This document shows, one piece after another, positions 1-635 of a stretch of 2,691 nucleotides of DNA (position 1 is the stretch's first letter; every line of letters begins with the position of its first letter). Location: the IMG/VR virus record IMGVR_UViG_2872185964_000012; one strand, 5' to 3'. A model generated the notes under the pieces. That model did no database searches. It was not told the origin of the DNA and was given only the letters and a program-made list of their open reading frames with translations. A program made the position numbers and the translations under genes. Origin of the DNA: a virus (Duplodnaviria > Heunggongvirae > Uroviricota > Caudoviricetes).

Positions 1-12
1 CTGTACTCCAAT

Positions 13-31
13 GACTAGTCTAAAAACTAGT
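13..31. repeat. Palindrome GACTAGTC (13-20) overlapping a direct repeat of the palindromic hexamer ACTAGT (14-19 and 26-31)
   Basis: Read directly from the sequence. Together with feature 40-59 this gives three dyad elements within 60 bp. Confidence 0.3.
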
Positions 32-39
32 ATTAAGAC

Positions 40-59
40 TATCACTTATTTAAGTGATA
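40..59. repeat. 20-bp inverted repeat TATCACTTA-TT-TAAGTGATA (9-bp arms, 2-bp spacer); candidate protein-binding site, function unknown
   Basis: Read directly: 40-48 TATCACTTA is the reverse complement of 51-59 TAAGTGATA. It lies in a 30% GC stretch upstream of the degenerate tfa. Confidence 0.4.
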
Positions 60-92
60 CTGGTTGTCTGGAGATTCTGGGGGCCAGTCTAG

Positions 93-635
93 TTGCATTT
101 AAAAAATATTACTGCGGGTAATCCGAAAACTGCGGAACAATACCAGATGACAAAAAAATATGATATTACCTAGCTTTTTTCGGAGGACGACAAAAACTGG
201 TATGAAGAACTGAAGAATTTCGCCAGCGACACAATTAAAATAGCTTACACCGGAGACGGGCGCGTGGTGTGGGTCGGTAAGGATGTGACAGGCATTGAAC
301 CCCGTAACGCCAGTGTTATTGAAGTTCCTGATATTACCGCCAACCGCCGCATTACCGCGCCGGGTTACTGGTTTTACCGCAATGATGAATTTGTCTTTGA
401 CTACAGACTCAAAGCGGAAGATGAGCGTGATGCCCTTCTGGCTCAGGTCAGAGCCCGGACAGGGGAATGGGAAGAAGACCTGCTGCTGGGGTTAATCAGC
501 GACGAAGATAAAGAAAAGCTGAAAGCCTGTCGTATTTACGCGAAATCGCTGCAGGCGATGGATTTCAGCACCATCACAGATAAAGCCACATATAACGCCA
601 TCAACTGGCCGGAGCGTCCCGATGCCGCAGCTTAA
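93..635 (+). pseudogene. tfa: Tail fibre assembly protein (Tfa, P2 G / Mu U / e14 TfaE-like), 5' end degenerate; only the C-terminal 123 codons (264-635) form an intact ORF
   Basis: Frame-3 translation from TTG 93 reads [42 protein letters not shown]...VIEVPDITANRR... This matches the conserved Tfa N-terminal signature as I recall it (MQHLKNI..NPKTKEQY..DGKNWYEE..VVEVPDIT.NRR). The codon before TTG is TAG (90-92) where homologues have ATG. An in-frame amber TAG sits at 171-173, at a position I recall as Trp in homologues. The frame is uninterrupted from 174 to the TAA at 633-635; the ORF track starts it at GTG 264. A G5 run (79-83) lies 9 nt upstream of TTG 93. Confidence 0.6.
611..614 (+). 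promoter_or_regulatory. Shine-Dalgarno (GGAG) for the side tail fibre gene
   Basis: GGAG at 611-614 lies 7 nt upstream of ATG 622, inside the 3' end of the upstream tfa (14-nt gene overlap). Confidence 0.5.

Follow-up and report, generated by a model that had tools for sequence, protein, structure and literature searches.

The left end of an intact IS2 in the tail fibre assembly gene of a prophage remnant, and an amber codon behind it

What is the unusual DNA at the beginning of this Caudoviricetes sequence? The window, that is the whole stretch of 2,691 nucleotides analysed here, starts with a GC content of 30.0% (positions 1-60), 36.7% (1-120) and 36.0% (1-175), against 53.5% in 176-2691. 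CTAG occurs at positions 15, 27, 89 and 170 and nowhere else in all 2691 bases: four were observed in 1-175 against 0.56 expected from the base composition (Poisson P(≥4) = 0.003), and none in the 2516 bases of 176-2691 against about 9.5 expected in the same way. The segment also carries the palindrome GACTAGTC at 13-20, ACTAGT twice (14-19 and 26-31) and the 20-bp dyad TATCACTTA-TT-TAAGTGATA at 40-59. All these features had been described in an earlier note made from the sequence alone, and our recomputation returned every one of them at the same positions; the observations are correct and non-random. The note regarded 1-175 as one foreign segment. It is evident that the segment consists of two unrelated pieces, an IS2 end (1-91) and the 5' coding part of a tail fibre assembly gene, tfa (92-175), and that the foreign DNA stops at 91. 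We consider it almost certain that 1-91 is the left end of an intact IS2 inserted in a prophage tfa with duplication of GTTGC, and that this tfa has been inactivated twice.

A megablast search with 1-175 on its own, as the earlier note had proposed, found 19,966 places, spread over 4,594 of the 5,426 complete E. coli genomes searched and lying both on chromosomes and on plasmids, and the matches to 1-91 were mostly 95-99% identical. Among the matches listed, all covered either only 1 to about 91 or 97 (the IS2-type repeat) or only 92-175 (separate tfa matches), except for one two-piece match. Multi-copy matches that end at about 91-97 are the signature of an insertion sequence, and annotated copies of the 1-91 stretch directly adjoin a CDS named 'IS3-like element IS2 family transposase'. 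Some matches reached position 96 because the IRL-side flank of the IS2 in E. coli EC21Z-078 happens to start with GTTGC.

By an exact look-up of the 123-aa ORF at 264-635, the window was placed at positions 5738-8428 of a locus, L004, of the 4.71-Mb chromosome CP026872.1 in assembly GCA_002950295.1, and the complete IS2 occupies L004 4498-5828, exactly 1331 bp. Its coordinates are obtained as 92 minus the window position (Table 1). The orfA ATG immediately precedes window position 1, which is the first base past the start codon, and the reverse complement of 1-91 is TAGACTGGCCCCCAGAATCTCCAGACAACCAGTATCACTTAAATAAGTGATAGTCTTAATACTAGTTTTTAGACTAGTCATTGGAGTACAG. The element encodes orfA (121 aa, HTH_Tnp_1, PF01527) and orfB (301 aa, rve, PF00665 and PF13683), with a single A6G slippery site, AAAAAAG, at IS2 nt 409 within the orfA/orfB overlap. 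In IS2, a -1 frameshift at A6G links the two overlapping ORFs, the first coding for an HTH and the second for a DDE/rve core. The IRR in L004 opens TGGATTTGCCCC and reads TGGATTTGCCCCTATATTTCCAGACATCTGTTATCACTTAA. The IRL of IS2 is 42 bp long with a TA-3' terminus (PMC3299598, PMC3219604), and 40 of the 42 positions here are equal to the published IRL oligonucleotide TAGACTGGCCCCCTGAATCTCCAGACAACCAATATCACTTAA (PMC3219604). The two differences are T14A and A32G, the latter occurring also in other natural IS2 copies. Length and inverted repeats, the two ORFs with A6G, the 5-bp duplication and the left-end sites, namely every sequence-level property of IS2 that was tested, were all present.

The breakpoint was located at 91|92 by comparison with the related prophages of E. 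coli VL40 and O121. L004 has ...TATTTAACAATGTTGC|TGGATTTG... at the left border of IS2 and ...CCAGTCTA|GTTGCATTT... at the right one, with GTTGCATTTAAAAAAT on the tfa side. The intact relatives read ...TATTTAACAATGTTGCATTTAAAAAAT..., in which the fibre stop TAA is followed by the tfa ATG, and they carry GTTGC once, in TAACAATGTTGCATTT. When IS2 and one GTTGC are removed, tfa is perfectly contiguous. The matching GTTGC flanks therefore place the insertion within codons 2-3 of tfa, with duplication of GTTGC. IS2 makes a 5-bp target duplication. The 5-bp spacing of the catalytic centres (PMC3299598) agrees with a duplication of this length. By ordinary transposition, an intact minus-strand IS2 (IS3 family) has entered tfa at these codons. 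As a control, a second IS2, independent of ours and present in the O121 relative (L002), has ATGAC on both sides, and this second insertion indicates that the tail-fibre module has been struck by IS2 more than once. The O121 copy is located at L002 3843-5173, in the neighbouring tail-fibre N-terminal-domain gene, in the same orientation.

IS2 might instead mark an IS-mediated rearrangement, either IS2-IS2 recombination or an adjacent deletion. The prophage is heavily truncated, its upstream fibre gene being reduced to 171 bp next to the gyrA 3' flank, and some IS2 copies have no duplication, for example that of EC21Z-078. However, GTTGC is equal on both sides and tfa closes up without IS2 and one GTTGC, and the truncation on the gyrA side, 171 bp away from IS2, is a separate event. 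Because the 5-bp flanks match, we rejected a rearrangement as very improbable. As for the EC21Z-078 copy (L003 761-2096), its 5-bp flanks are unequal (TAAAT versus GTTGC), and it is therefore not a simple insertion.

The simple insertion in tfa cannot itself be an assembly artefact. The junction ...CCAGTCTA|GTTGCATTT... was absent from the 5,426 complete E. coli genomes and the two other collections scanned, with 0 matches in an exact search of genome_contigs, and it could be a lineage marker. The idea of the earlier note that the segment holds a junction with acquired DNA thus stands for the IS2/tfa junction, with the breakpoint at 91/92 and not near 175.

Table 1. Positions of the IS2 left-end parts and of the tfa pseudogene in the window
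Feature	Window position	Strand	Remarks
IS2 left end, outermost 91 bp	1-91	minus	IS2 nt 91 to 1
orfA 5' leader	1-35	minus	SpeI sites 14-19 and 26-31; GACTAGTC 13-20
orfA Shine-Dalgarno GGAG	6-9	minus	in orfA leader
Putative extended -10 promoter P_IRL, TGaTAGTCT	36-44	minus	IS2 nt 48-56; position per PMC3299598
Dyad TATCACTTAAATAAGTGATA, 20 bp	40-59	no strand	IS2 nt 33-52
IRL, 42 bp	50-91	minus	TA-3' tip at window 90-91
Right copy of target duplication GTTGC	92-96	plus	5 bp
tfa (tail fibre assembly protein, Caudo_TAP) pseudogene	92-635	plus	homology to relatives
Amber TAG, codon 28	171-173	plus	in frame with tfa; TGG (Trp) in both relatives

The three palindromes all correspond to standard parts of IS2. 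The dyad covers the inner end of the IRL and, at window 46-52, the OrfA repressor docking site 5'-TAAATAA-3'; this site and protection of IS2 residues 39-48 have been reported (PMC3299598). The TGAT at IS2 residues 48-51 opens a weak promoter of the extended -10 type, P_IRL, from which the IS2 proteins are expressed (PMC3299598). IS2 nt 33-56 of our copy are the same as the published sequence without any difference. The roles of the dyad and the promoter are those predicted from the literature (PMC3299598, PMC3219604) and not from this copy, and the hexamer given for P_IRL is our own tentative reading. A scan of 1-300 for consensus sigma-70 -35/-10 sites returned no site; as P_IRL is of the extended -10 type and has no -35 box, this result is what one expects of it. 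P_IRL points leftward, out of the window and away from tfa, to orfA/orfAB; it would transcribe the transposase genes in this direction, and GACTAGTC and the ACTAGT repeat lie in the untranslated orfA leader. A SpeI site is on record on the downstream side of this promoter (PMC3219604), and the leader matches other IS2 copies except for one base. The inner end of the IRR has the same sequence as one of the two dyad arms, TATCACTTAA; the palindrome is therefore a conserved inner repeat element plus its inverted copy. This architecture would fit a dimeric OrfA site, and OrfA bound at the dyad would repress the adjacent weak P_IRL (function per PMC3299598). The suggestion in the earlier note of a regulator or recombinase binding site was broadly right, with the dyad as the IRL inner end and OrfA docking site by P_IRL (PMC3299598). 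An Rfam scan of 1-400 gave only a sub-threshold chance match (GNAS-AS1_3, 18.3 bits versus a gathering score of 42).

The same note had likened the dyad to the cI/Cro operators of lambdoid phages. Operators of this kind are 17 bp long, have TATCACCG-type half-sites and form tandem sets between divergent repressor genes. The TATCAC half-site does resemble lambda operator half-sites and the dyad itself is present, and it might be such an operator, or another phage regulator site, controlling the tail-fibre genes. However, the dyad lies inside IS2 and is found in thousands of IS2 copies unrelated to phages. It is a single 20-bp site without the TATCACCG extension: a pattern search of the window for TATCACCG gave nothing at 40-59 and only unrelated single half-sites near 1794. 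Moreover, no repressor gene stands beside it, the neighbours being the IS2 transposase genes and tfa, and the site has been assigned to IS2 OrfA and transposase (PMC3299598). We rejected the lambdoid operator as having practically no chance of being correct. A crossover site of the Hin/Gin/Pin type was also considered. Such sites are 26-bp hix/gix-type sequences with a AAACCnnGGTTT-like core beside an invertase gene. This candidate was discarded, as the window has no match to the core pattern and no invertase is found among the L004 neighbours. In the upstream DNA, where the note had proposed to look for a repressor, recombinase or fibre gene, there are the IS2 transposase genes and a fibre 3' remnant, with no repressor gene adjacent and no invertase gene among the L004 neighbours.

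The four CTAGs go back to three unrelated origins. Those at 15 and 27 are within the SpeI sites of the IS2 leader and are common to other IS2 copies. The one at 89-92 is the IS2 terminus ...CTA abutting the G of the duplicated target, a product of chance at this boundary. The last, at 170-173, comes from a G-to-A change at 172, by which TGG (Trp28) became the amber TAG. The case illustrates that where CTAGs and palindromes cluster in enterobacterial DNA, they are often the mark of IS ends.

From the duplicated target onward, the DNA belongs to tfa. The earlier note held that homology of the Tfa 5' end breaks down at the segment, whereas we could follow it without a break from 635 down to codon 2 at position 92. 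The gene is co-linear with its annotated counterparts, the tail fibre assembly genes of VL40 (L001 3999-4544) and O121 (L002 2999-3544), in both of which a 'phage tail fiber protein' gene is followed, after 2 bases, by a 546-bp 'tail fiber assembly protein' gene. The repaired 181-aa Tfa matched PF02413 (Caudo_TAP) with E = 8.6e-27 and 94.3 bits (cut-off 22.1). This match and the position, after the fibre gene in the relatives and after a fibre 3' remnant in L004, place it in the Tfa family. The GC content of 92-175 is 33% here versus 40% in VL40, and that of the whole tfa is 48-49% in both; the low value in 92-175 is inherent in the 5' coding region of tfa. IS2 has moved the start codon and the ribosome-binding site of tfa 1.3 kb upstream. 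At the other end of the gene, tfa (stop 633-635) shares its last 14 bases with the tail-fibre N-terminal-domain ORF, whose ATG is at 622. The same 14-base overlap exists in the relatives, and thus the two genes appear to be translationally coupled in one operon.

A comparison of the window with VL40 revealed that 34 of 44 substitutions fall in two patches, 131-244 in the tfa 5' part (n=18) and 1097-1156 in the Ala/Gln-rich part of the fibre gene (n=16), and that outside them the window is nearly identical to VL40. Part of the patch 131-244 agrees with the O121 allele instead of VL40. To judge from these alignments, the patches look like mosaic exchange between tfa and fibre paralogues. In addition, megablast of 92-300 against the complete E. 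coli genomes gave a best identity of 94.3%, which means that no complete E. coli genome has this tfa allele, and an exact search of metagenome_contigs and genome_contigs for the allele with TAG or TGG gave 0 matches. The mosaicism of tail-fibre modules, the 18-mismatch patch and the lack of any E. coli genome above 94.3% over 92-300 could speak for another suggestion of the earlier note, that 1-175 represents the AT-rich 3' terminus of an upstream fibre gene that was swapped in, or for a phage-phage recombination junction. However, the upstream fibre gene has its 3' end outside the window, on the far side of the 1331-bp IS2 (L004 4327-4488), with its stop TAA 2 nt before the tfa ATG. Moreover, 92-175 aligns codon for codon with the tfa of the relatives, and the mosaic patch falls inside the coding part of tfa, away from the change in composition at 91/92. 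Either form of this explanation can hardly be right.

The second lesion of tfa is the amber codon, which does disrupt the gene as the earlier note had stated. It is a point mutation separate from, and unrelated to, the foreign DNA. Position 172 is A in the window versus G in VL40, and this G-to-A change converts the Dcm site CCTGG to CCTAG. Dcm sites are hot spots of 5-methylcytosine deamination, and when the methylated inner C of the complementary strand is deaminated (CCAGG to CTAGG), CCTAG results. We infer that the amber is the change expected from Dcm 5-methylcytosine deamination, if it is not a consensus error. Two independent lesions would then inactivate tfa, the separation from its start codon by IS2 and the nonsense change of Trp28.

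The amber is known from one assembly only. In this assembly, the window has four 1-bp deletions versus VL40, all in G/C homopolymers (753, 1287, 1488 and 2671), which yield apparent frameshifts in the tail-fibre gene and the last small ORF, and gyrA is called as two ORFs (L004 1583-4209). The homopolymer deletions and the split gyrA imply that some of the apparent lesions may be consensus errors, and the tail-fibre frameshifts may be assembly errors rather than real pseudogenisation. The amber could be explained in the same manner, as an error of the consensus without any real mutation. Its position is within a Dcm motif, and on some long-read platforms methylation motifs lead to systematic errors in basecalling. 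No independent sequence with TAG at 172 was found in the complete E. coli genomes, genome_contigs or metagenome_contigs. On the other hand, polished assemblies contain far fewer substitution errors than homopolymer indels, and we regard a consensus error at 172 as unlikely, though far from negligible. The 123-aa ORF past the amber (264-635) is recorded in 31 blocks of the assembly collection; the contigs shown begin past 172 and therefore carry no information on the amber. A look-up of a 114-aa ORF at 1319-1663 found it not on record.

The surroundings of the doubly damaged tfa are those of a prophage remnant. The VL40 fibre gene can be aligned from L004 4327 onward, and only 171 bp of it have been kept (4327-4497, 164/171 identical). 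At the left truncation (L004 4210-4497), this fibre remnant comes directly after the gyrA 3' flank and a terminator-like hairpin, and the baseplate and tail genes are missing from the L004 prophage. Downstream of tfa there are, as in the relatives, a tail-fibre N-terminal-domain gene, a DUF4376 gene and an ipaH-type (NEL) effector gene. The last of these, an E3 ligase gene, is convergent and located just past the DUF4376 gene, at L004 8514-9380, L001 6691-8406 and L002 6926-8752. The ipaH-type gene of the source is called at only 288 aa and may be truncated. With its ipaH gene and its IS load, the locus points to Shigella or enteroinvasive E. coli as the host. One may imagine that the Dcm amber and IS2 reflect selection to silence the tail-fibre module while ipaH is kept, or that T14A/A32G alters the transposition or the promoter of IS2, but we consider such ideas improbable. 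What is seen is a prophage remnant in decay, linked to ipaH, with an IS inserted in it, and this is already known biology and nothing new. Its value lies mainly in annotation, namely the exact IS2 boundaries and a doubly inactivated tfa pseudogene.

Finally, the locus can be compared with three known systems. With the lambda OR/OL operators of cI/Cro, the dyad shares the hexamer TATCAC and dyad symmetry, but it is a single site of another length and centre, inside a transposable element and without adjacent repressor/cro genes, and the likeness is coincidental. The region 92-635 resembles the lambda-type Tfa (PF02413) genes of myovirus-like prophages of E. coli/Shigella, with which it is co-linear and, like them, follows a tail fibre gene; it differs in being a pseudogene, with IS2 in codons 2-3, an amber at codon 28 and the divergent patch 131-244. 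The third system is IS2 (IS3 family, IS2 group), whose ends are imperfect inverted repeats, a 42-bp IRL opening TAGACTGG... and a 41-bp IRR opening TGGATTTG... (PMC3219604, PMC3299598). Our element shares these ends, the length of 1331 bp, the order of orfA, A6G slippery site and orfB, and the 5-bp target duplication. Its dyad, TAAATAA, TGAT extended -10 and SpeI-bearing leader are at the published positions (PMC3299598, PMC3219604), and it departs from published or common IS2 by the substitutions T14A and A32G in the IRL and A87T in the leader.
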